Numbered from the stretch's first letter, positions 5,657 through 25,858 are shown. The stretch is DNA of 26,357 nucleotides from a virus (IMGVR_UViG_2645727948_000026:1-26357), one strand, 5' to 3'. A program made the numbers and translations. The notes: a model not told the origin generated them from the letters alone.

Positions 5657-6046
5657 ATGATTGACGCTCATGACTTCACAAGATGGGTGCGCACACAGGA
5701 CACCCGTCTGGCTCCCGTTCTTCAGGGATTATTTGATCTCTACATCCGTGGTCGTGACAACAGAGCACGCACCACAAAACCGGAGAATGCAGACACCCTT
5801 TATTTCACAGTAGACGACTGCTACCGCGTGGACTTCACACCACACGGGCTGGCGTTGCACTGCCTGACACCACACGGAGAATCACTGCTGGCGTATTACG
5901 ACTCCCCGACCTCCGTATTTGCGGCAATGCTGGCGCATCGCACTGCTGGCGGGTGTGCCTCGCTGAGTGAATACACCGCTGAATTTAACCGCCTTTCTGC
6001 CCTCTTCTCGCAGGAGTGGCAGCGCGTGACGGGATACCAGCCATGA
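5657..6046 (+). CDS. Early-operon hypothetical protein (129 aa)
   Basis: ORF track; its stop overlaps the likely gpA start (ATGA). Confidence 0.55.
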   Translation: MIDAHDFTRWVRTQDTRLAPVLQGLFDLYIRGRDNRARTTKPENADTLYFTVDDCYRVDFTPHGLALHCLTPHGESLLAYYDSPTSVFAAMLAHRTAGGCASLSEYTAEFNRLSALFSQEWQRVTGYQP

Positions 6047-8883
6047 ATGAGTTTGCATGGAGCTGGAATGAACCACGGCCAGCCATTGATCCGGCCAGAT
6101 TTACGGAGCACAGGCAGGAAACTGAAACCGACCTGCAACGCGCCATCCGTTACTACCTTGAGGCAGACAAAAAGGCTCTGGAAGAACAGGAAGCGAAGGA
6201 GGAAGCCTTTTTCGCACAATCCACCGTGGGTAAAAAACTCATGGCATCCCTTGAGGAAGCCGGACAGCGTGAAAAGCTGGCACAAAGCATCATCAGCAAG
6301 CGTCAGGCAACAGAACAAGACCCGGTGGCCCGTGCTTTTGCCACACTGAAGGTGCTTCCCGTTTATCTGCGTAAACCTCTGAGCCGCCACCTCTCTTTCC
6401 TGCGCAAAAAACAGGAAGCCGATCGCCAGAAAGGCAAAAAGAGCTGGCAGGCTGAACGCTACGCGCGCGGAACCCTGCGCAAAATATTCGAACGCCTGGA
6501 CCGCACCGACCACCGCTGGCTGACACCGGGTTATCGCTCCCTTGCCGGACGCGAACGCCTGGATGATTTGCTTTACCTGCCGCAGCTCAACAAGCACCAG
6601 ATACAGACGCTGGCCACCATGACGGCGGCGATGTTCAGCAGCACCTTCGAAAAACTCTGCGATGGCTTTGGCGCGACCGATGGTGAGCTGACCATGGATG
6701 TAACGCTGAAGGCGTATCAGATGCTGGCCCGCATGGCGTTACACCTGCACGCCATGCCTCCACATTATGACGCACTGACAACAGACAAAGACCGGAGGAA
6801 CGAACCGGACACGGAGCTGCTGCCGGGCGCAACCCTTCGCCTGACCTGTGCGGAATGGTGGAAACGCAAACTGTGGCTGTTACGTTGCGAGTGGCGGGAA
6901 GAACAACTCCGCGCCGCCTGTCTGGTTTCCAGAAAAACATCACCCTATCTGAGCCAGGACGCGTTAAGCGAGTTTCGCGCACAGCGCGAGAAAACACGCG
7001 ATTTCCTGAAAAGTTTCATGCTGGAAAATGAAGACGGGTTCACGATTGATCTCGAGACGGTGTATTACGCGGGAGTAAGTAACCCGGTTCACCGTAAGGC
7101 AGAAATGATGGCCACCATGAAGGGGCTGGAACTTCTGGCCGAAGCCCGTGGCGACAGAGCGGTGTTTCTGACTGTCACCTGCCCGTCAAAATACCACGCA
7201 ACAACGGAGAACGGTCATCCGAATCCCAAATGGAACGGGGCCACAATGCGCGACTCCAGCGATTACCTGGTTAACACGTTTTTTGCGGCGGTCCGCAAAA
7301 AACTGAACCGCGACGGCCTGCGCTGGTATGGCATCCGCACGGTGGAGCCTCACCATGACGGCACTGTGCACTGGCATATGATGGTCTTTGCACATCCGGA
7401 CGAGATTGAAACCATCGTGTCCCACGTCTGCGATATTGCCATTCAGGAAGACCGCCACGAGCTGGGCGATGACATAACTCCGCGTTTTAAGGCGGAGTAC
7501 GTCGACGGCTCAAAAGGCACGCCAACCAGCTACATCGCCACCTACATCGGAAAGAACCTGGACAGCCGCGCCGTGGATGGCATCGACCCGAAAACGGGCA
7601 AGCCACGCGTTGACCACGAAACAGGTAAATCAATGGCCGAGAGCGTGGAGCGCGCCATCGGCTGGGCGCGCCTTCACCGGGTCCGTCAGTTCCAGTTCTT
7701 TGGCATCCCCTCCCGTCAGGTGTGGCGTGAACTGCGCCGCCTTGCCAGCCAGATGGCACGCAATCCGGAAGGCCCGCAACGGCTGAAGGATGACGCAATG
7801 GACGCGGTACTCGCTGCCGCTGATGCCGGATGTTTTGCCACCTACATTGAGAAACAGGGTGGCGTACTTGTTCCACGCAAAGACTACCTGATTCGCACCG
7901 CCTACGACCTCGCAGATGAGCTGAACGATTACGGTGAACAGAGCGTACAGATTTACGGGATCTGGTCGCCGCTCATTGGGGAGTCTTCCCGCGTATGCAC
8001 GCATCCGGATAACTGGAAGCTGGTAAGACGCAAACCGGAAGCGGAAGACAGCGCCCGCGAAAATGGTTTTGACCTTCAGGGCGGCCCTGCCGCCCCTTGG
8101 ACTCGTGGCAATAACTGTCCCCGTGTACAGGAAACAGGCAACAACGGGACAGAACAGCCGGAAGAACGGCCAGCACCGTGGCCGCAGCTTCCTGACGGCG
8201 TTGAAGTAAATGAATGGATGCGCTCACTGAAACGGCACGAACGCCGGGCGCTGATGCGTTCGCTTCGTGACAAACAGGCAAAAAACAGCAGCGATGAAAT
8301 GCAGAACTGGACACAGAGCCGCAAACAGCAGCGGCCTTTGCCTGATAACCACGAGTTACTCGCTAAAGAATGGCGGGAGTCTGCTGAATCTCTCGGCCTG
8401 CATATCGGTGAACAACAGATGCAGCACCTGTTACGGGGCGGCAGTCTGTACGTTGACGGCAGCATCATTGCACCGCAGGGATTTGAAATTGTACGCAAAC
8501 CGGATACCCGCCCGGACAGCCGAATCACGCAGCTCTGGCAGCGTCTGAGCCGTAATCATGGCGTAAGCAGCACGGAGATCCGCCATAACCCGGTCGCCAG
8601 CTATCTGGCACAGCTGGGGGCATCAGACCCTGAAGCCGCCGCACGCCTGGCATCCACACTTCAGCAGGACCAGAACACCATGAAAACACCCGTTACCGTG
8701 CTTTCTGACATGCTGCGCGCCATCCGCGACGCAGAGCACGCACAGAGAATCAGTGAAACCACTGAACGCGCCAGCCGCAAAGCAGACCTGCTGCGGGGTG
8801 GCCTGACCAGTGGAAACAAAAAACAGACAGAAACGGGACTCACGAATCCCGTAAATGAGCAAAAAACGCGCAGCGATATATGA
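6043..8883 (+). CDS. A: Rolling-circle replication initiator endonuclease, P2 gpA-like (about 946 aa)
   Basis: ORF track 6016..8883. HUH motif (TVHWHMMVF) and paired catalytic tyrosines (SYIATYIGKN). Start at ATG 6043 preferred because it couples to the upstream stop; 6016 is also possible. C-terminus is longer than P2 gpA as I recall it (761 aa). Confidence 0.85.
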   Translation: MNEFAWSWNEPRPAIDPARFTEHRQETETDLQRAIRYYLEADKKALEEQEAKEEAFFAQSTVGKKLMASLEEAGQREKLAQSIISKRQATEQDPVARAFATLKVLPVYLRKPLSRHLSFLRKKQEADRQKGKKSWQAERYARGTLRKIFERLDRTDHRWLTPGYRSLAGRERLDDLLYLPQLNKHQIQTLATMTAAMFSSTFEKLCDGFGATDGELTMDVTLKAYQMLARMALHLHAMPPHYDALTTDKDRRNEPDTELLPGATLRLTCAEWWKRKLWLLRCEWREEQLRAACLVSRKTSPYLSQDALSEFRAQREKTRDFLKSFMLENEDGFTIDLETVYYAGVSNPVHRKAEMMATMKGLELLAEARGDRAVFLTVTCPSKYHATTENGHPNPKWNGATMRDSSDYLVNTFFAAVRKKLNRDGLRWYGIRTVEPHHDGTVHWHMMVFAHPDEIETIVSHVCDIAIQEDRHELGDDITPRFKAEYVDGSKGTPTSYIATYIGKNLDSRAVDGIDPKTGKPRVDHETGKSMAESVERAIGWARLHRVRQFQFFGIPSRQVWRELRRLASQMARNPEGPQRLKDDAMDAVLAAADAGCFATYIEKQGGVLVPRKDYLIRTAYDLADELNDYGEQSVQIYGIWSPLIGESSRVCTHPDNWKLVRRKPEAEDSARENGFDLQGGPAAPWTRGNNCPRVQETGNNGTEQPEERPAPWPQLPDGVEVNEWMRSLKRHERRALMRSLRDKQAKNSSDEMQNWTQSRKQQRPLPDNHELLAKEWRESAESLGLHIGEQQMQHLLRGGSLYVDGSIIAPQGFEIVRKPDTRPDSRITQLWQRLSRNHGVSSTEIRHNPVASYLAQLGASDPEAAARLASTLQQDQNTMKTPVTVLSDMLRAIRDAEHAQRISETTERASRKADLLRGGLTSGNKKQTETGLTNPVNEQKTRSDI

Positions 8884-8931
8884 GGCGCGCACAAAACAGG
8901 CAAAAACGGGATTTCAGAATCCCGTAAACGA
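8824..8931. repeat. Two copies of a palindrome-containing direct repeat
   Basis: AAACGGGACTCACGAATCCCGTAAA (8831-8855) and AAACGGGATTTCAGAATCCCGTAAA (8904-8928), with conserved flanks, 73 bp apart. Copy 1 is inside the last gpA codons, copy 2 is intergenic just upstream of the parM-like gene. Confidence 0.6.
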
Positions 8932-8959
8932 TTAATTAATCAACATAAGGAAAACCGAC

Positions 8960-9919
8960 ATGAAAATTTACATCGACGACGGCTCCACCAACATCAAGCT
9001 GGCATGGACTGAGAACGGCGAACGCCGCAACGCCATCAGCCCGAACAGCTTCAAGTCGGAATGGTCTGCGCCGTTCGGTGGCTCGCAGCCTGCTAACTAC
9101 ATGCTTGATGGCGTGCGCTATGGTTTTGATCCGGTCAGCGATCGCTTTGTCCAGACGACCGACACGCAATACCAGTACAGCGATGTGAATGTCATTGCCA
9201 TTCATCACGCGCTGGTCAAATCAGACATCACGCCACAGGAAGTGGATGTGGTTGTTACCCTGCCACTGAGCGAATATTTCGACACAAACGCACAGCCGGA
9301 CATGGCCAACATCAACCGCAAAAAAGCGAACGTCATGCGCCCGGTGGAGTACCAGAACGGCGAAGCATTCACTATCCGTAACGTACGGGTTATGCCTGAA
9401 TCCATTCCGGCTGGCTTTAAAGCACTGGCTGACATGAGTCCGTTTGAATCCCTGCTGATTGTGGATTTGGGCGGAACCACGCTGGATGTGGCAAAGGTTC
9501 AGGGGCAACTGGCAGGTATCAGCCAGGTGTTTTGCGATCCACACGTAGGCGTTTCTCTTATGGCCGATGCCGTACTGTCGGTGATGGCCACTAACGGTAT
9601 GCGCACCAGTCACCACATCGCCAATACCATTATCGAACATCGCCATAATGAAGCCTGGCTGCGCCAGCACATCCACAATGACGCGCATTACGCCAGCCTG
9701 ATGGCGGTTATTCGTGAAAAGGAAGAAACACTGAAACAACGCGTGATCCGCGCGCTGGCGGTTTTTTCGGGTTACGGGCGGGTGATGGTTGTCGGTGGCG
9801 GGGCGGAGATTGTGGCACCCGCTATCCGCGAAGCCTGCGGAGTTAATGCGACTTTCATCGCGGACGGGGTGCCACAGTTTGCTCTGGTTAATGGGCTGTA
9901 CGCAATGGACAAGGAGTAA
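8960..9919 (+). CDS. parM: Actin-like ATPase, ParM/StbA family
   Basis: ORF track. N-terminus MKIYIDDGSTNIKLAW and blocks VMPESIPAG, LLIVDLGGTTLDV, VMVVGGGAE match my recollection of plasmid R1 ParM and the actin-fold phosphate/adenosine motifs. Confidence 0.7.
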   Translation: MKIYIDDGSTNIKLAWTENGERRNAISPNSFKSEWSAPFGGSQPANYMLDGVRYGFDPVSDRFVQTTDTQYQYSDVNVIAIHHALVKSDITPQEVDVVVTLPLSEYFDTNAQPDMANINRKKANVMRPVEYQNGEAFTIRNVRVMPESIPAGFKALADMSPFESLLIVDLGGTTLDVAKVQGQLAGISQVFCDPHVGVSLMADAVLSVMATNGMRTSHHIANTIIEHRHNEAWLRQHIHNDAHYASLMAVIREKEETLKQRVIRALAVFSGYGRVMVVGGGAEIVAPAIREACGVNATFIADGVPQFALVNGLYAMDKE

Positions 9920-9923
9920 ACCA

Positions 9924-10235
9924 ATGACGACACCAACCAGACGGATAAGTTTCTATCTGAAGCCCGCCGCCGTCAAGAACGAAGGAGAAGCATGCGCCTG
10001 GCTGGACAGCCTTACACCAGAAGCCCGCAAAAGCGGCCAACGCGTGGCTTTTCTGGCCGGGCTGGCACTTCTGAAGACGAATCCGGCAGAGGCTTACCGA
10101 CTGGCCGCATGGGCTGATGATGAGATGTTACCTGTGACACAAATCAGCTCAAAAAAGTTTGAAGCACAGTCTGCACCAGTGGCTAAGATAACCAGCCAGA
10201 TGGCTGGGAATATCCGGGCGTTATTTCCTGAGTAA
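9924..10235 (+). CDS. parR: ParR-like small DNA-binding adaptor (103 aa)
   Basis: ORF track 9789..10235 trimmed to ATG 9924 (GGAG RBS, 4 nt after the parM stop). N-terminus RRISFYLKP...LDSL...AFLAGLAL resembles R1 ParR as recalled. Confidence 0.55.
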   Translation: MTTPTRRISFYLKPAAVKNEGEACAWLDSLTPEARKSGQRVAFLAGLALLKTNPAEAYRLAAWADDEMLPVTQISSKKFEAQSAPVAKITSQMAGNIRALFPE

Positions 10236-10363
10236 AAGCATCTGCGCGAAAAATGCTCACGTTTATAGAGACAGTATCATTCCATTTGGCACACTTACTT
10301 CAATAATCGATCTGTTAAACAAATAGATTGTCTATTATCTATCGATTAAAACGATCAATTATC

Positions 10364-10391
10364 TTGACAGTAATGTGCCTTTTTGTAAGAT
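10364..10391 (+). promoter_or_regulatory. Sigma70-type promoter (rightward)
   Basis: TTGACA (10364-10369), 16-bp spacer, TAAGAT (10386-10391); AT-rich upstream region with CGAT/TATC motifs. Confidence 0.5.
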
Positions 10392-10441
10392 CGTTCGCAT
10401 TGTGAGCGACAAGATAATTGCGCGGCATTGTCCATGCAAAA

Positions 10442-10469
10442 CGCCCCAATAGCAGCAACTATTGGGGCG
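10442..10469 (-). terminator. Hairpin acting as a leftward terminator (candidate antisense RNA 3' end)
   Basis: Perfect 11-bp stem CGCCCCAATAG / CTATTGGGGCG with a 6-nt loop; only the minus-strand reading is followed by a U-run (plus AAAA at 10438-10441). Confidence 0.45.
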
Positions 10470-10497
10470 TAAAACTCGGTCGGGCTCACTTAACCTG

Positions 10498-10582
10498 ATA
10501 TGCGTGCCTTCCGAAGTAAATCAAAATGTGCGTCGTATATTTTATTGCTTACACGCACCTCTGTAAAGGCACGCATATTTTT
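10498..10582 (+). terminator. Long hairpin plus T-run (terminator or attenuator) before the 89-aa ORF
   Basis: 13-bp arms ATATGCGTGCCTT (10498-10510) / AAGGCACGCATAT (10566-10578) followed by TTTT; an inner GTGCGT/ACGCAC stem lies in the loop. Confidence 0.4.
10539..10567 (-). promoter_or_regulatory. Sigma70-type promoter (leftward), convergent with the 10364 promoter
   Basis: On the minus strand: TTTACA (plus 10562-10567), 17-bp spacer, TAAAAT (plus 10539-10544). Predicts a transcript of about 95 nt ending at the 10442-10469 hairpin. Confidence 0.45.
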
Positions 10583-10599
10583 CCTATGAGGTAAATAAA

Positions 10600-10869
10600 G
10601 TGCGGGCTAAAACAGGTATTTGCAAGAACCCTCATCGTTATAATCCAACATTTCTGTCTCTCCCTGAATATCAAGGACAAGAAGGTCGGCACAAATGCGC
10701 TGCCTGTGCTTTTGAGCTAGGCATAAAAGATGCGCTTGAAGGACGCGCTATGGCTCAGAATGATTTAGTTTTAGCTAACATTCCGTTTAGCCAGGCTGGA
10801 ACTGTAAGGCACAGAGATGCCTATGAAGCATATGTTCGTGGTTGGCGATTAATAAACAGCAACAATTGA
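10600..10869 (+). CDS. Small Cys-containing protein (89 aa), function unknown
   Basis: ORF track; GTG start with GAGGT RBS. CAACAF motif with a single CxxC. Followed by a clean intrinsic terminator. Confidence 0.4.
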   Translation: MRAKTGICKNPHRYNPTFLSLPEYQGQEGRHKCAACAFELGIKDALEGRAMAQNDLVLANIPFSQAGTVRHRDAYEAYVRGWRLINSNN

Positions 10870-10877
10870 TACTTTTG

Positions 10878-10903
10878 AAGCGCCGATAAGGCGCTTTTTT
10901 TGT
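10878..10903 (+). terminator. Rho-independent terminator
   Basis: AAGCGCC-GATAA-GGCGCTT stem-loop followed by a T8 run. Confidence 0.7.
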
Positions 10904-10904
10904 T

Positions 10905-11046
10905 TGCACGATAGTGCACAAGTTTGCACAATTTTTTTGAACGACTTTTTGTACTTCCGGCCCGCGTGGTGGCTGGATCCGTCAAGGATCCGTACGTGCA
11001 CAAAAAAACGCGTTTTTTCTGCGCGCAGGTGACGGGGGAACAGCCC
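10905..11046. other. Probable cos / packaging region with phased repeats
   Basis: TGCAC at 10905, 10915, 10925 (10-bp phasing) and 10997; two CGGATCCG palindromes (10975-10992); A6-CGCG-T6 palindrome (11003-11018); G-rich 19-mer GGTGACGGGGGAACAGCCC (11028-11046) resembling the P2/186 cohesive end as I recall it. Placement next to Q fits P2. Confidence 0.3.
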
Positions 11047-11302
11047 GCGTTTCAGGGGGTAAATAGCATTCCCTGAACGATGTCGCAGAGACACAACAGA
11101 ATGGCCATATTTCTCACGCTGAGCATGAAAAAGGCGTGAGGGCTTTTGATTTGATGGGGTGAAAGGTAAGGCCGTCAAAATCGCACTGAGGCAGCGAGAA
11201 CATACAGTCAACGCGGTGGAATTGCGTAAGAGTCTGACCGTCGATGGTGGCGATAAACTGGAAGGCGTCGTGAAATTATCTGATTGATACAGGAGCTGGA
11301 GA

Positions 11303-11331
11303 GCCGGGGCATAAATTTTTTATGCCCCGGC
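11303..11331. repeat. 29-bp perfect palindrome
   Basis: GCCGGGGCATAAA-TTT-TTTATGCCCCGGC, in the non-coding stretch upstream of the 174-aa ORF. Confidence 0.6.
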
Positions 11332-11430
11332 GAAGCAGCAGACAAGCGAAGCGCGTCAGCGATACGGCACCTTGCCGACCATACTTCATAAGTGCAAAAT
11401 ACGAGCAAAGAAATCAATGGAGGCTGTCTT

Positions 11431-11955
11431 ATGGTCATTAATTACAAGCAGTTAAGAGAAAAACGGGAGCAGGTAAAGGAGAGCTTTCGCCGCAATGAAG
11501 ATCTGACCCCGCTTGTACGCCTTGCCCAGGGCATTGTTGATGCTTATGAAATCTCGCTGGAGCTGCCATCACAGACCTGGACAGATAGCGACGGTAATCG
11601 CCAGCATTACGTTTCATGCGGACTGGAAGCAGCCGAAGGATTTCGCAGAATGCCTTTATCCCAGATCCCTGCCGCTACCCCCAAAGCACGGGGCAGCAAT
11701 GATGAGCGAAAACTGACTTTTAGTATTGAAACGGTGGTTGACGACACACCTGGCGAAGTCGCGTTCGTGCACACGCCTGTTTCGATCGCAATGTATAACG
11801 ATGAAATACAGGTTCGCGTTAATAATAATATCGTGCCACTTAAAGAAGGTAATTCACCCTACACCACCGTTTGTGAAGCCATTCAATATTACGTTCTCTC
11901 TGAAATTGATAATCTCAAGCCTGACGGCACCCAGAAAATGGTTCAACTCTGGTAA
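11431..11955 (+). CDS. Hypothetical protein (174 aa) convergent with the portal gene
   Basis: ORF track 11392..11955 trimmed to ATG 11431 (GGAGG 7 nt upstream). No recognisable motif. Confidence 0.55.
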   Translation: MVINYKQLREKREQVKESFRRNEDLTPLVRLAQGIVDAYEISLELPSQTWTDSDGNRQHYVSCGLEAAEGFRRMPLSQIPAATPKARGSNDERKLTFSIETVVDDTPGEVAFVHTPVSIAMYNDEIQVRVNNNIVPLKEGNSPYTTVCEAIQYYVLSEIDNLKPDGTQKMVQLW

Positions 11956-11960
11956 AAAGG

Positions 11961-11986
11961 ACAGCCCCATCACGGGGCTGTTTTTT
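11961..11986. terminator. Bidirectional terminator shared by the 174-aa ORF and Q
   Basis: CAGCCCC-ATCAC-GGGGCTG hairpin with T6 downstream on plus and a T-run on minus (plus AAAAA at 11953-11957). Confidence 0.6.
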
Positions 11987-13016
11987 CATCAAGAAGAGCA
12001 TAAGAGTTAAAACGGATCACCTCTTCGCCAAGCCAGTCATTGATGTGCTTCATAGCCTCCATGACGGGCATCAGCTCGTTAATTGCGTAAACCCGCGCTG
12101 CCTTCTCCACATCGCCAAACGCACTTTTTTCGCCCGGCATCGCCCCCATCAGTTGCGGCGGAACGCGGTGCGCAGCCAGCACATCATCACGGGATGCCGC
12201 CTTAACATTCATGAATTCATCTTTTGCGGTGATCTGCTGGAACGGCAAAATTTGCACCCCCTCTTTGCCCCCGTTGGGCGCATGAATGAGCACGTTTTTA
12301 AACGCACCACCACCACGTGCCCCCTGTAGCGTTTCTTTCAGGGAGTCCATGCTTTCGCGGTTTACCTGCGCTGCACCGATGTAGATGATGCACCCGGCGT
12401 GGGATCCGTTGTCGTAGTACAGTTTTCTGAACATGTCCGCCGAATGAGAAAGGCTGGCCGAGAGTAATGCGCCAAGATATTCCGGCATGCCGTAGATTTC
12501 CTGGTTAATATCCGGATTCATCAGGTGGCACACTTTGCCAGGACGAAACTGAAACGCGTCCTTGCCATCCTGCACATACCACCATGATTCAAGATCGCTT
12601 CCGCGTCGCATGTATTTCGCCAGGGCGTGCCGTAATTTAAGCGGTTCGCCGAGCATATTGCTTCGAAGCTCAAGGAATGCGTTACCGAACACAAACCAGT
12701 CCAGCGCCAGCGCCGAGAAATCCTGCCGGGAAAGCAGCGGGTGCGGGATGTAGCAACCGAGTAATACATTGCGCTTAAAGTAAAGCGCAGACTGATGCCA
12801 GGACGTTTGCCGGGCTGCTCTTGCCAGACCGTACCAGTCCACCGGGGTTTCATACCACCGCCCGTTATCAGCACAGTACATATTGTCCAGCAGGTCATGC
12901 CCGGTCAGGCGATAAGGACCATCAAATGTGAATGCACTGAGCGATGATTCTTTCCTGAGCGCATCAGCGAGATCAATGCGTGAACTCATGCGCACTTTTT
13001 TATTTTTTCTGCTCAT
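11970..13016 (-). CDS. Q: Portal protein, P2 gpQ-like
   Basis: ORF track (348 aa); size and position match P2 Q; start overlaps the P stop. Confidence 0.85.
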   Translation of the reverse strand: MSRKNKKVRMSSRIDLADALRKESSLSAFTFDGPYRLTGHDLLDNMYCADNGRWYETPVDWYGLARAARQTSWHQSALYFKRNVLLGCYIPHPLLSRQDFSALALDWFVFGNAFLELRSNMLGEPLKLRHALAKYMRRGSDLESWWYVQDGKDAFQFRPGKVCHLMNPDINQEIYGMPEYLGALLSASLSHSADMFRKLYYDNGSHAGCIIYIGAAQVNRESMDSLKETLQGARGGGAFKNVLIHAPNGGKEGVQILPFQQITAKDEFMNVKAASRDDVLAAHRVPPQLMGAMPGEKSAFGDVEKAARVYAINELMPVMEAMKHINDWLGEEVIRFNSYALLDEKTAP

Positions 13017-23255: not shown

Positions 23256-24850
23256 CAGTGAAATACTACGCCATTCTGACTAATCAGGGCGCAGCACGAC
23301 TGGCTAACGCGACGATGCTCGGCAGTAAGCTGAATCTGACGCAAATGGCCGTTGGTGATGCAAATGGTGTGTTACCAACACCAGACCCTGCACAAACAAA
23401 ACTGATTAACCAGAAACGCATTGCACCGCTGAATCTTCTGAGTGTTGACCCTAACAATCAGAGCCAGATTATTGCGGAGCAAATCATCCCTGAAAACGAG
23501 GGAGGATTCTGGATCCGTGAGATTGGTCTTTATGATGATGAAGGTGCACTCATTGCGGTGGCAAACTGCCCGGAAACGTACAAACCGCAGTTGCAGGAAG
23601 GCAGTGGACGCACCCAGACTATCCGCATGATTCTGGTTGTCACGAACACCGAAGCCATCACGCTGAAAATCGACCCGTCTGTGGTTCTGGCAACCCGCAA
23701 ATATGTGGATGATAAAATATCAGAGCACGAACAGTCACGACGTCACCCGGACGCCTCGCTGACCGTAAAAGGTTTTACTCAGTTAAGCAGTGCAATTAAC
23801 AGTGAATCAGAAACACTGGCCGCAACACCGAAAGCGGTTAAGGCTGCATATGACCTGGCTAACGGGAAATATACCGCCCAGAACGCCACCACTACACAAA
23901 AAGGGATTGTTCAGCTCAGTAGCGCCACGAACAGCACGTCTGAAACGCTGGCAGCGACACCAAAAGCTGTTAAGGCGGTAATGGATGAAACGAACAAGAA
24001 AGCACCATTAAACAGCCCGGCACTGACCGGAACGCCAACAACACCAACAGCGCCACAGGGGACTAATAGTACCCAGATCGCAAGCACGGCTTTCGTTATG
24101 GCTGCGATTGCCGCACTTGTAGATTCGTCACCTGATGCACTGAACACGCTGAACGAACTGGCTGCAGCGCTGGGCAATGACCCGAATTTTGCGACCACCA
24201 TGACTAACGCGCTTGCGGGTAAGCAACCGAAGGATGCCACCCTGACGGCGCTGGCGGAGCTTGCTACATCAGCAGATAAACTCCCATATTTTACAGGGGC
24301 AGATCGTGCCGCGTTAACCGCGTTGACAAGTGTTGGACGTGCCATTCTTGGTAAAACCAGCACTCAGGGAGTTCTTGATTACCTTGGTTTGGGAGAAGGT
24401 TCGGCATTACCCGTTGGTGTGCCTGTTCCGTGGCCTTCAGCCACACCGCCTACTGGCTGGCTGAAATGCAACGGTGCGGCTTTTTCTGCTGAAGAATACC
24501 CGGAACTGGCAAAGGTTTATCCGACAAATAAATTGCCGGATTTACGCGGTGAATTTATTCGTGGCTGGGATGACGGACGTGGTGTGGATGCCGGGCGACA
24601 ATTATTATCTTCACAGGGGGATGCAATAAGAAATATTGAGGGATTCGCAGATGGCGGGATCGGTATGTCTTTTGATGCAATCAGAGGGGCTTTTTATGAT
24701 GCAGGAACACGATCTGCGAGAATGCCGAATAACACAACTGATATAGGCAAAACCGATGACCTTGGATTCGACGCCTCTCGTGTCGTGCCAACAGCTAATG
24801 AAAACCGTCCACGTAACATCGCCTTTAATTATATTGTGAGGGCTGCATAA
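23252..24850 (+). CDS. H: Tail fibre protein, P2 gpH-like (conserved N-terminus, variable C-terminus)
   Basis: ORF track (532 aa); N-terminal MTVKYYAILTNQGAARLANA; duplicated SETLAATPKAVKA motif typical of tail fibres. Confidence 0.85.
   Translation: MTVKYYAILTNQGAARLANATMLGSKLNLTQMAVGDANGVLPTPDPAQTKLINQKRIAPLNLLSVDPNNQSQIIAEQIIPENEGGFWIREIGLYDDEGALIAVANCPETYKPQLQEGSGRTQTIRMILVVTNTEAITLKIDPSVVLATRKYVDDKISEHEQSRRHPDASLTVKGFTQLSSAINSESETLAATPKAVKAAYDLANGKYTAQNATTTQKGIVQLSSATNSTSETLAATPKAVKAVMDETNKKAPLNSPALTGTPTTPTAPQGTNSTQIASTAFVMAAIAALVDSSPDALNTLNELAAALGNDPNFATTMTNALAGKQPKDATLTALAELATSADKLPYFTGADRAALTALTSVGRAILGKTSTQGVLDYLGLGEGSALPVGVPVPWPSATPPTGWLKCNGAAFSAEEYPELAKVYPTNKLPDLRGEFIRGWDDGRGVDAGRQLLSSQGDAIRNIEGFADGGIGMSFDAIRGAFYDAGTRSARMPNNTTDIGKTDDLGFDASRVVPTANENRPRNIAFNYIVRAA
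24372..24397. promoter_or_regulatory. Candidate 26-bp DNA-invertase crossover site (hix/gix/cix-like) inside H
   Basis: TTCTTGATTACC-TT-GGTTTGGGAGAA compared with recalled hixL TTCTTGAAAACC-AA-GGTTTTTGATAA; lies at the conserved-to-variable junction of H. Confidence 0.5.
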
Positions 24851-25443
24851 TGAAACCTGTTTTTGATGAAAATGGGCTGGCTACAGTGCCGGGTGATATG
24901 CGTTGTTATTATTATGATGCAGTAACGTCTGAATATACGGGCTGGTCTGATGAATATATTAATACTGGCGTAAGTATGCCCGTTTGTTCCACTGGTATTG
25001 ACCCGGGCGAATACATTCCGGGAAGAGTGGCAGTATTTACGGGTAAGGGATGGAGCCATGAAGAAGACCATCGCAATGAGACCGTTTACTCAACTGAAAA
25101 TGGCGCAGCTGTTACAGTGGATTATATCGGTGCCATCAAAGACGGTTATGTCACGCTTTCACCGTTAACGCCATACGATAAATGGGATGGTGAGAAATGG
25201 GTGACGGATACCGAGGCACAGCATAGCGCCGCAGTAGAAGCTGCAGAAGCACAGCGCCAGTCGCTGATTGATGCTGCAATGGCTTCCATCAGTCTGATTC
25301 AACTGAAATTACAGGCCGGGCGGAAGCTGACGCAGCCAGAAAACACCCGACTTAACGCTGTGCTGGATTATATTGACGCGGTGACGGCAACAGATACCAG
25401 CACAGCGCCGGACGTCATCTGGCCTGAACTGCCGGAGGCGTAG
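24850..25443 (+). CDS. G: Tail fibre assembly chaperone (gpG/Tfa-like)
   Basis: ORF track (197 aa); starts at the H stop; C-terminal TSTAPDVIWPELPEA motif. Confidence 0.8.
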   Translation: MKPVFDENGLATVPGDMRCYYYDAVTSEYTGWSDEYINTGVSMPVCSTGIDPGEYIPGRVAVFTGKGWSHEEDHRNETVYSTENGAAVTVDYIGAIKDGYVTLSPLTPYDKWDGEKWVTDTEAQHSAAVEAAEAQRQSLIDAAMASISLIQLKLQAGRKLTQPENTRLNAVLDYIDAVTATDTSTAPDVIWPELPEA

Positions 25444-25858
25444 GCCATTCAATATCTGGCGCACCGGAAGTATCGACCAGTTCCAGTGCGTCCAGATAAT
25501 CCAGCCACAAATTATATTGCGCCAGTTCCTCACCTTTCAGGCGACCAATCGCCGCTTTACCAGGCCATTGCTTACTGTATATGTATTCGTTGACCTGATT
25601 AATCAATTGCTGCTTTTCCAGTTCGGCTGCAGCAATTTGTTCCTCATGAGTTGGCGGTGGAATTTCCCCCCAGGTGGGAAGGCCATCATCACCCGCGATG
25701 CGTACTTTCCCTTGCAACGTTCTGTCTTCAATAAATTCCAGGTAAGTGTCATATGTCACTTCGACAACATCAGCAAGTTCCCATCCGGCCTGTTCATATT
25801 TCGCCACATCATTTTTAGCGAAAAAACTATTTTTTGAGGCGCTATAAACCATTTCCAT
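25415..25858 (-). CDS. Second tail fibre assembly chaperone, inverted orientation
   Basis: ORF track (147 aa); C-terminal TSGAPDIEWPTPP parallels the plus-strand Tfa; convergent with it. Confidence 0.75.
   Translation of the reverse strand: MEMVYSASKNSFFAKNDVAKYEQAGWELADVVEVTYDTYLEFIEDRTLQGKVRIAGDDGLPTWGEIPPPTHEEQIAAAELEKQQLINQVNEYIYSKQWPGKAAIGRLKGEELAQYNLWLDYLDALELVDTSGAPDIEWPTPPAVQAR

Follow-up and report, generated by a model that had tools for sequence, protein, structure and literature searches.

Why should a phage that integrates into the chromosome of its host carry a DNA-segregation cassette of the plasmid type? The question is raised by a 26,357-nucleotide (nt) stretch of viral DNA (IMGVR_UViG_2645727948_000026:1-26357; "the window" hereafter denotes this stretch at its full length), in which genes for a ParM-type actin-like ATPase and a ParR-type adaptor, parM and parR (together parMR), follow the replication gene gpA. 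The window is a P88-like prophage (genus Xuanwuvirus, family Peduoviridae), integrating and P2-like, whose gene content also includes an integrase, a helix-turn-helix repressor, a portal protein and a terminase. Chromosomal Escherichia coli prophages, including that of O157:H7 FRIK944, match a 1.5-kb stretch at 100% identity, and the FRIK944 copy is chromosomal and adjoins btuC; a first-pass annotation of the window had called it an integrating P2-like prophage, and both the gene content and the position beside btuC uphold that description. With modest confidence, we propose that parMR and a pair of dyads lying upstream constitute a functional type II (ParMRC-type) DNA-segregation cassette, predicted to be a fixed core of the P88-like lineage and of its relatives in the Enterobacterales and to act on extrachromosomal circles. 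The features concerned are collected in Table 1.

The gene pair and its upstream sites

The product of parM matches both Pfam domains of its family (StbA_N, 1e-80; ParM C-terminal domain, 3e-68), and its residues 1-316 align to the solved structure of R1 ParM (1mwk) with an E-value of 8e-92 (phmmer), so that its earlier designation as an R1 ParM-type ATPase of 319 amino acids (aa) is confirmed; identity to R100 ParM is 46%. The motifs for binding of the nucleotide, phosphate and adenosine alike (D6-D7-G8-S9-T10, E147, D169-x-G-G-T-T-x-D176 and G279-G-G-A282), are invariant in 10 phage-borne homologues. By the pairwise Nei-Gojobori method, the ratio of nonsynonymous to synonymous substitution (dN/dS) is 0.076 for parM, 0.19 for gpA and 0.24 for parR, and parM is thus under strong purifying selection, with tighter constraint than the essential gpA. 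We compared 102 distinct loci of the E. coli type, taken from IMG/VR and elsewhere: ParM identity was 97-100% in 101 of them, with gpA ranging there from 80 to 100%. Existing PHROGs families cover both ParM and ParR under the label 'partition protein'.

The gene parR begins 4 nt past the parM stop, a gap that is kept in 100 of 101 loci. Its product matches Pfam Plasmid_stab_B (PF10784) at 1e-23, as do all ten aligned ParRs, R100 StbB/ParR included, and a profile built from the aligned ParRs matches the solved ParR of pB171 (2jd3) with an E-value of 1e-14; the suggestion that this open reading frame (ORF) encodes a ParR-like adaptor therefore stands. Alignments divide the protein into a conserved N-terminal region (residues 1-65), predicted to be a ribbon-helix-helix DNA-binding region, a hypervariable linker rich in Pro, Gln and Ala (residues 66-93), and a C-terminal tail. 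The tail, xNI(R/Q)ALFPE, is invariant across 18 phage ParRs and aligns with the KKNAMKLIN end of R100 ParR (motif N-x-x-x-L-F); we take it, after the R1 ParM-ParR peptide co-crystal, to be the ParM-binding tail. At the other end, two alleles that were compared agree in all of their first 18 residues, and residues 6-14 show no variation across the 18 phage ParRs. The parR gene itself is polymorphic, with allele groups at ~100, 83-88, 75, 62-65 and 55% ParR identity standing beside ParM at 97-100% (loci L003, L005 and L165); nucleotide similarity between alleles ends just past codon 18, and the differences fall mainly in the linker.

Upstream of the two genes, the sequence AAACGGGA-N8-TCCCGTAAA is present at 8831-8855 and again at 8904-8928. 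The core ACGGGA-N8-TCCCGT occurs exactly twice in the window, and a search of the whole window that allowed up to two mismatches to the core returned one further match, which is unrelated. Each core lies in one of two 42-nt direct repeat units that are 81% identical and spaced 73 bp from start to start. Two palindromic repeats had been described as preceding the operon; both are indeed upstream of parM, but the first is not intergenic, as it falls inside the last gpA codons (stop 8881-8883), and only the second stands alone in the 76-nt spacer between gpA and parM, its dyad being 35-54 nt upstream of the parM start. In population variants the dyad takes an 8-4-8 form, ACGGGA(T/C)T-N4-AATCCCGT, in which the arms are kept and the central 4 nt vary. 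No compensatory changes within the dyad arms were found among these variants, arm changes being single-sided, so that readings of the dyads as protein sites and as hairpins are not separable. Dyad variants are spread independently of the ParR allele in a covariation test, in which the DNA-binding N-terminus is itself near-invariant. A strong predicted RNA fold over the repeats (z = -4.3) was rejected as a signal, being the trivial product of two identical palindromes.

The arrangement of the sites recurs beyond E. coli. Paired GGG-N10-CCC sites lie at -125/-52 from the parM ATG in the window, at -131/-59 in a Plesiomonas locus and at -128/-55 in a Hafnia locus; the flanking DNA of the latter two is unalignable with the window, yet the pair of sites 72-73 bp apart is found again, for which the probability of two sites 70-75 bp apart arising by chance is 0 to 5e-5 (20,000 dinucleotide shuffles per upstream region). 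In Hafnia an extra ORF of 167 aa is inserted between gpA and parM, and the paired sites hold their distance to parM, which indicates that they belong to parMR and not to gpA. The ATTAATCAA 9-mer, which could be part of a weak promoter, is in the same place in both of these relatives (Plesiomonas L016 and Hafnia L014), and the string GGCAAAAACGGGA is common to repeat unit 2 and to more distant phages of Serratia and Enterobacter, for example upstream of a Serratia phage parM. The half-site core in the window, AATCCC, may be set beside the AACCC core of the ten direct 11-bp iterons of R100 parC. With a position relative to parM that is conserved across genera and a CCC core as in the R100 iterons, the repeats are plausibly a candidate parC-like centromere or operator, and the earlier view that they occupy the place expected of one is plausible in this light.

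Table 1. Features of the parMR module and its neighbourhood, in window coordinates
Feature	Position	Strand	Description
gpA	6016-8883	+	Replication endonuclease, rolling-circle initiator; Pfam Phage_GPA 5e-129; RefSeq 'replication endonuclease'
Repeat unit 1, candidate parC	8817-8858	.	Dyad ACGGGACT-CACG-AATCCCGT at 8833-8852; overlaps gpA coding end
Repeat unit 2, candidate parC	8890-8931	.	Perfect 8-4-8 dyad ACGGGATT-TCAG-AATCCCGT at 8906-8925; in gpA-parM spacer
ATTAATCAA motif	8935-8943	+	Between dyad 2 and ribosome-binding site AAGGAA (8947-8952)
parM	8960-9919	+	319 aa; R1-type actin-like segregation ATPase
parR	9924-10235	+	103 aa, ATG at 9924; StbB/ParR-family adaptor
Variable cargo region	10236-11969	.	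Outside the module; between parR and portal gene Q
Cargo ORF	10600-10869		89 aa, phrog_3941
Cargo ORF	11392-11955		187 aa, phrog_5091

Linkage to gpA and distribution

The first-pass annotation had placed parMR in the variable region between gpA and Q, in the manner of the P2 genes old and tin. The comparison of loci does not support this placement. In 77 of 78 loci, 76 nt separate the gpA stop from the parM ATG, and a junction probe (600 nt of gpA joined to 600 nt of parM) was covered over at least 80% of its length in 1287 of 1372 matching genomes (94%); the distance from parR to the portal gene, by comparison, varies from 1.0 to 2.8 kb, and the variable cargo begins past parR. Guanine-plus-cytosine (GC) content follows the same boundary, at ~0.54 through gpA and parMR and ~0.40 just past parR. 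The cargo differs from one relative to the next and includes HicAB, DUF3800, a KAP NTPase and small ORFs of no known family, while the order gpA-parM-parR-cargo-portal is kept at ParM identities of 92% in E. coli, 62% in Hafnia, 62% in Plesiomonas, 57-58% in two Serratia and 53% in Enterobacter. Thus the fixed linkage of gpA and parMR, the phage-like GC content and the synteny across genera together argue that parMR is a core pair of the lineage and not hotspot cargo, and it is best treated as such, marking where, on the left, the gpA-Q defence hotspot proper begins.

The same linkage bears on expression. No sigma-70 consensus was detected in 8800-8960, where manual inspection gave weak candidates only, and no terminator-like site was found on the plus strand between gpA and parM. 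From the lack of a terminator or promoter consensus between the two genes, we infer read-through from the gpA early operon, and parMR is most likely expressed together with gpA, after infection or induction. As to gpA, the protein has 955 aa, of which the Pfam GPA domain covers residues 194-518, and ~440 C-terminal residues have no assigned domain.

The module is present in 1304 of 5426 complete E. coli genomes (~24%); about a quarter of these genomes, that is, carry a plasmid-type segregation cassette within a P2-like prophage. Nearly all places in complete E. coli genomes at which the gpA/parM junction was found (1532 of 1534) are chromosomal. Of 50,697 phage records, only 14 P88-like ones and the phage-plasmid D6 (47% identity) hold a ParM that tblastn detects. 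Scans of IMG/VR for diverged relatives gave almost only the E. coli type, and the diverged relatives came from contig look-ups; in these, drawn from at least five genera, the genes persist although ParM identity has fallen to 53-62%. A neighbour-joining tree of 107 ParMs places the phage sequences in two clades, A (with Plesiomonas and Hafnia) and B (with Serratia and Enterobacter), each with 100% bootstrap support, which are joined to each other in 54 of 100 bootstraps; this fits one or two captures from plasmids. All seven of the clade A and B members tested have parM adjacent to gpA, and all four tested outside the clades have a plasmid or integrative and conjugative element (ICE) context. 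Those homologues at 52% identity or below that were checked reside in an ICE, in an integrated Rep3 plasmid, in a plasmid-like contig and in R100. Even the closest of the plasmid ParMs share only ~50% identity with that of the window, and the repeats upstream of them bear no relation to the dyads.

Matches in plasmid records are few. One, NZ_CP148288.1 (L004; E. coli Z1323PEC0009, in PLSDB), is a circular 34,461-bp 'plasmid' that consists of a complete P88-like phage genome with integrase, and this circle may represent an episomal prophage or else phage DNA that was excised or induced. The others are a linear 26.7-kb contig and a fragment of phage DNA picked up by IS26 within an IncC plasmid. 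In the latter (L173; pC-Ec2-KPC, NZ_MK439959.1), a left-truncated P88-like segment borders IS26 in a conjugative KPC plasmid and runs from the early genes by way of gpA and parMR into structural genes; a resistance plasmid is here moving phage DNA, parMR included. The module is also carried, with a ParM of 97% identity, by a 226-kb contig assigned to 'Vagococcus sp. WN89Y' (L006; NZ_JBQPOM010000071.1); as Vagococcus is Gram-positive and the module belongs to an enterobacterial prophage, this assembly is likely contaminated or mislabelled.

That a module of this kind should be found in a phage with an integrase was earlier presented as unexpected. Its presence is real, and chromosomal, but the surprise was overstated, since the Prokaryotic Genome Annotation Pipeline (PGAP) annotates it routinely, in FRIK944 as 'plasmid segregation protein ParM' and 'plasmid partitioning/stability family protein', and since it has been reported before: a survey of the gpA-Q interval in 18,150 E. 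coli P2-like loci found a putative partition system to be encoded by about a quarter of P2-like phages, with StbA and Plasmid_stab_B listed in the tables (Rousset et al., 2022; PMC9122126). In light of that report and of routine annotation, the module must be regarded as already known. In addition, a ParR homologue is listed as a 'fitness' gene in a paper on prophage ΦSM (PMC6456863). No functional study of this module was found in the literature searched. What is added here is that parMR forms a core pair beside the hotspot, that it is kept with gpA across at least five further genera, that the constraint on parM exceeds that on gpA, and that its probable centromere consists of two conserved dyads, the first of which falls within gpA.

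Several further features of the window lie outside the module. The cargo region has a GC content of 0.39-0.45 over ~10150-10900 and of ~0.50 in its remainder, and its two ORFs gave no Pfam domain above threshold and no PADLOC match. It also holds a promoter-like TTGACA-16-TAAGAT at 10364-10391, a hairpin with a perfect 12-bp stem (ACGCCCCAATAG / CTATTGGGGCGT) at 10441-10470, and, at 10498-10578, a perfect inverted repeat of 13 bp whose arms are 55 nt apart; Rfam returned nothing usable in the module, and the hairpin alone gave a match, below threshold, to sar RNA (E=0.4). FRIK944 is otherwise identical to the window through parMR, but the gap that follows is ~610 nt shorter there, and its annotation shows no gene where the window has the 187-aa ORF. 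Beyond the cargo, gpA-parMR is joined to two portal types (the window's at 11970-13016), which are ~99% identical in most loci and ~30% in eight (L005, L158 and six others); two very different portals beside one gpA-parMR module indicate that the structural and replication modules are mosaic. Towards the far end of the window, two tail-fibre assembly genes are convergent on opposite strands (24850-25443, plus; 25415-25858, minus, Caudo_TAP), and in FRIK944 a 'recombinase family protein' comes after the tail-fibre assembly genes; the segment 24850-25858 is reminiscent of a host-range segment that can invert, of the Mu Gin or P1 Cin kind.

Possible function and competing explanations

The present data allow a model to be drawn of how the cassette may act. 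ParR dimers would bind the paired dyads via their N-terminal ribbon-helix-helix region, the spacing of 73 bp corresponding to about seven helical turns, and the C-terminal tail of ParR would capture the ends of ParM filaments, whereupon ATP-driven polymerisation of ParM would push apart circular phage genomes that bear the sites. As the cassette is tied to gpA and probably co-expressed with it, the likely substrate is extrachromosomal circular phage DNA after infection or induction, rather than the integrated prophage. Two roles may be envisaged, namely the spreading or positioning of replicating circles, as by AlpAC of prophage CGP3, or the inheritance of a copy by both daughter cells before integration or after excision, as by SrpMRC of SXT/R391. 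In this scheme we infer that ParR binds the dyads, that parMR is transcribed together with gpA, and when in the life cycle the cassette would act. A bolder version may be entertained tentatively, with rather more doubt than belief, in which ParMRC is a core part of the life cycle of an integrating, rolling-circle P2-like lineage: a phage actin cytoskeleton would position or partition circles in lytic replication or between infection or excision and integration, a dual integrative and plasmid lifestyle would be possible for roughly one in four E. coli P2-like prophages, and the two-dyad centromere lying partly in a replication gene would represent a new parC architecture.

Several observations weigh against a segregation cassette. 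Just two dyads (four half-sites) make up the candidate centromere, compared with ten iterons in R1/R100, and the candidate parC may serve mainly as an operator. In the clade B phages of Serratia and Enterobacter the layout is a different one, with one long inverted repeat whose arms of ~20 nt begin GGGAAC. Promoter and timing are deduced solely from missing consensus signals, and membership of ParR in its family rests on sequence, since an AlphaFold2 monomer model of low confidence (predicted local distance difference test score, pLDDT, 56) was left unused. The gain from active partition is not obvious in high-copy lytic replication of the P2 type. Finally, truncated forms of ParM (proteins P0009, P0017 and P0006) are common in databases (a 229-aa frameshift form with 649 member sequences, a 188-aa form with 555, and a 261-aa form with 414, next to full-length clusters of 4287 and 1308 members), which suggests that loss is tolerated in established lysogens, with the reservation that these counts are of database entries, among which there may be artefacts of contig ends.

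It has been suggested in passing that such phages are facultative plasmid prophages (Rousset et al., 2022; PMC9122126), in which case the cassette would permit long persistence as a low-copy plasmid instead of integration. In favor of this scenario, gpA, parC and parMR together resemble a replication-partition module, a related ParM is found in the phage-plasmid D6, and the circular record NZ_CP148288.1 is of phage size. However, that lone circle could be excised or induced DNA, the other plasmid matches are incidental, and the overwhelming majority of junctions are chromosomal in a lineage that keeps its integrase and repressor. Further, P2 gpA is a rolling-circle initiator that forms part of the lytic programme. 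A plasmid lifestyle is therefore unlikely to explain the cassette. One circular record excepted, its carriers also depart from phage-plasmids, which are extrachromosomal and usually lack an integrase, in having both integrase and repressor.

An alternate scenario would have ParR serve chiefly as a transcription factor where gpA ends and parM starts, with ParM as its autoregulated partner, or else would have the cassette act on the integrated locus and thereby influence segregation of the host chromosome. The presence of just two dyads in a layout typical of ribbon-helix-helix operators, the second of them close upstream of the parM start, would suit a regulator, and R1 ParR is itself an autorepressor. 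However, ParM is the most constrained of the three genes, and ParR keeps its ParM-binding tail invariant, a sign that selection acts on the interaction of ParM with ParR and not on regulation alone; as for action on the chromosome, we know of no benefit of active pushing on a chromosomal locus. We thus regard both forms of this scenario as improbable.

A role in defence, exclusion or incompatibility, directed at incoming phages or plasmids with a related parC and exerted by gpA-Q cargo akin to old and tin, may be considered highly improbable. The cassette does lie within the gpA-Q interval, which has been treated as a defence hotspot (Rousset et al., 2022; PMC9122126), and ParR expressed from a prophage together with parC could in principle cause partition incompatibility. 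However, neither ParM nor ParR matches any PADLOC defence model, the GC content is phage-like and unlike that of the adjoining cargo, and the presence and position of the cassette are constant in the lineage and conserved with gpA across genera, and the nearest plasmid ParMs are only ~50% identical and have unrelated upstream repeats; the defence or exclusion system offered as one option by the first-pass annotation is accordingly not supported. Just as improbably would the cassette be a non-functional relic of an old plasmid-phage recombination hitch-hiking beside gpA, a notion that the common truncated variants and the lack of a reported phenotype in the searched literature might encourage, but to which strong purifying selection, intact catalytic motifs and the retention of genes and cis sites in at least five genera, where ParM has diverged to 53-62% identity, leave very little room.

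Comparison with known segregation systems

The segregation cassette proposed here is most readily compared with ParMRC (StbA/StbB/parC) of plasmids R1 and R100. The two are alike in a full-length ParM with both Pfam domains and a ParR of PF10784, in the order sites-parM-parR, in the N-terminal region of ParR and its tail (N-x-x-x-L-(F/I)), and in a C-rich site core flanked by A/T (AACCC in R100, AATCCC in the window). They differ in that the carrier is an integrated, chromosomal prophage with an integrase, whereas loci of the R1/StbAB type are expected on autonomous low-copy replicons, which they stabilise. ParR has 103 aa in the window and 116 aa in R100, the phage protein being shorter than plasmid ParRs because its linker is shorter. 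The R1/R100 centromere consists of two blocks of five direct 11-bp iterons around the promoter, in contrast to two 20-bp dyads 73 bp apart in the window, where the first dyad lies within the coding end of gpA and no promoter consensus was detected. The P1-like phage-plasmid D6, whose StbA-type ParM is 47% identical, is itself a plasmid, whereas P88-like phages integrate.

Two further systems belong to integrated elements. In the SXT/R391 family, srpMRC confers stability on ICE R391 in its excised form, which replicates by rolling circle (Carraro et al., 2015; PMC4489591); this too is a type II locus in a normally integrated element that acts on an excised circle with a rolling-circle initiator, and its centromere, upstream of a ParM-like gene, is built from direct and inverted repeats, few in number (PMC4489591), as the candidate parC of the window would be. 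It is carried, however, by an ICE rather than a phage, and SrpM and SrpR are distant from R1 ParMR, SrpR having no recognisable ParR domain, whereas the window proteins are close members of the R1 family. In Corynebacterium glutamicum, AlpAC of prophage CGP3 is induced early, connects circular phage DNA with actin-like filaments and is required if that DNA is to replicate efficiently (Donovan et al., 2015; PMC4446434). Here the likeness is in an integrated prophage with an actin-like filament former and a co-transcribed adaptor that binds sites upstream of its own operon (PMC4446434), and the difference in another actin-like family, an actinobacterial host and an unrelated phage type; moreover, the function of AlpAC has been shown experimentally, whereas the window module is known from sequence alone. 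Should parMR indeed partition or position phage circles, it would be the first actin-like system for the handling of phage DNA to be described in an enterobacterial temperate phage, and it would extend the picture drawn from SXT/R391 and CGP3, in which plasmid-type maintenance is kept by integrated elements for a transient free state.

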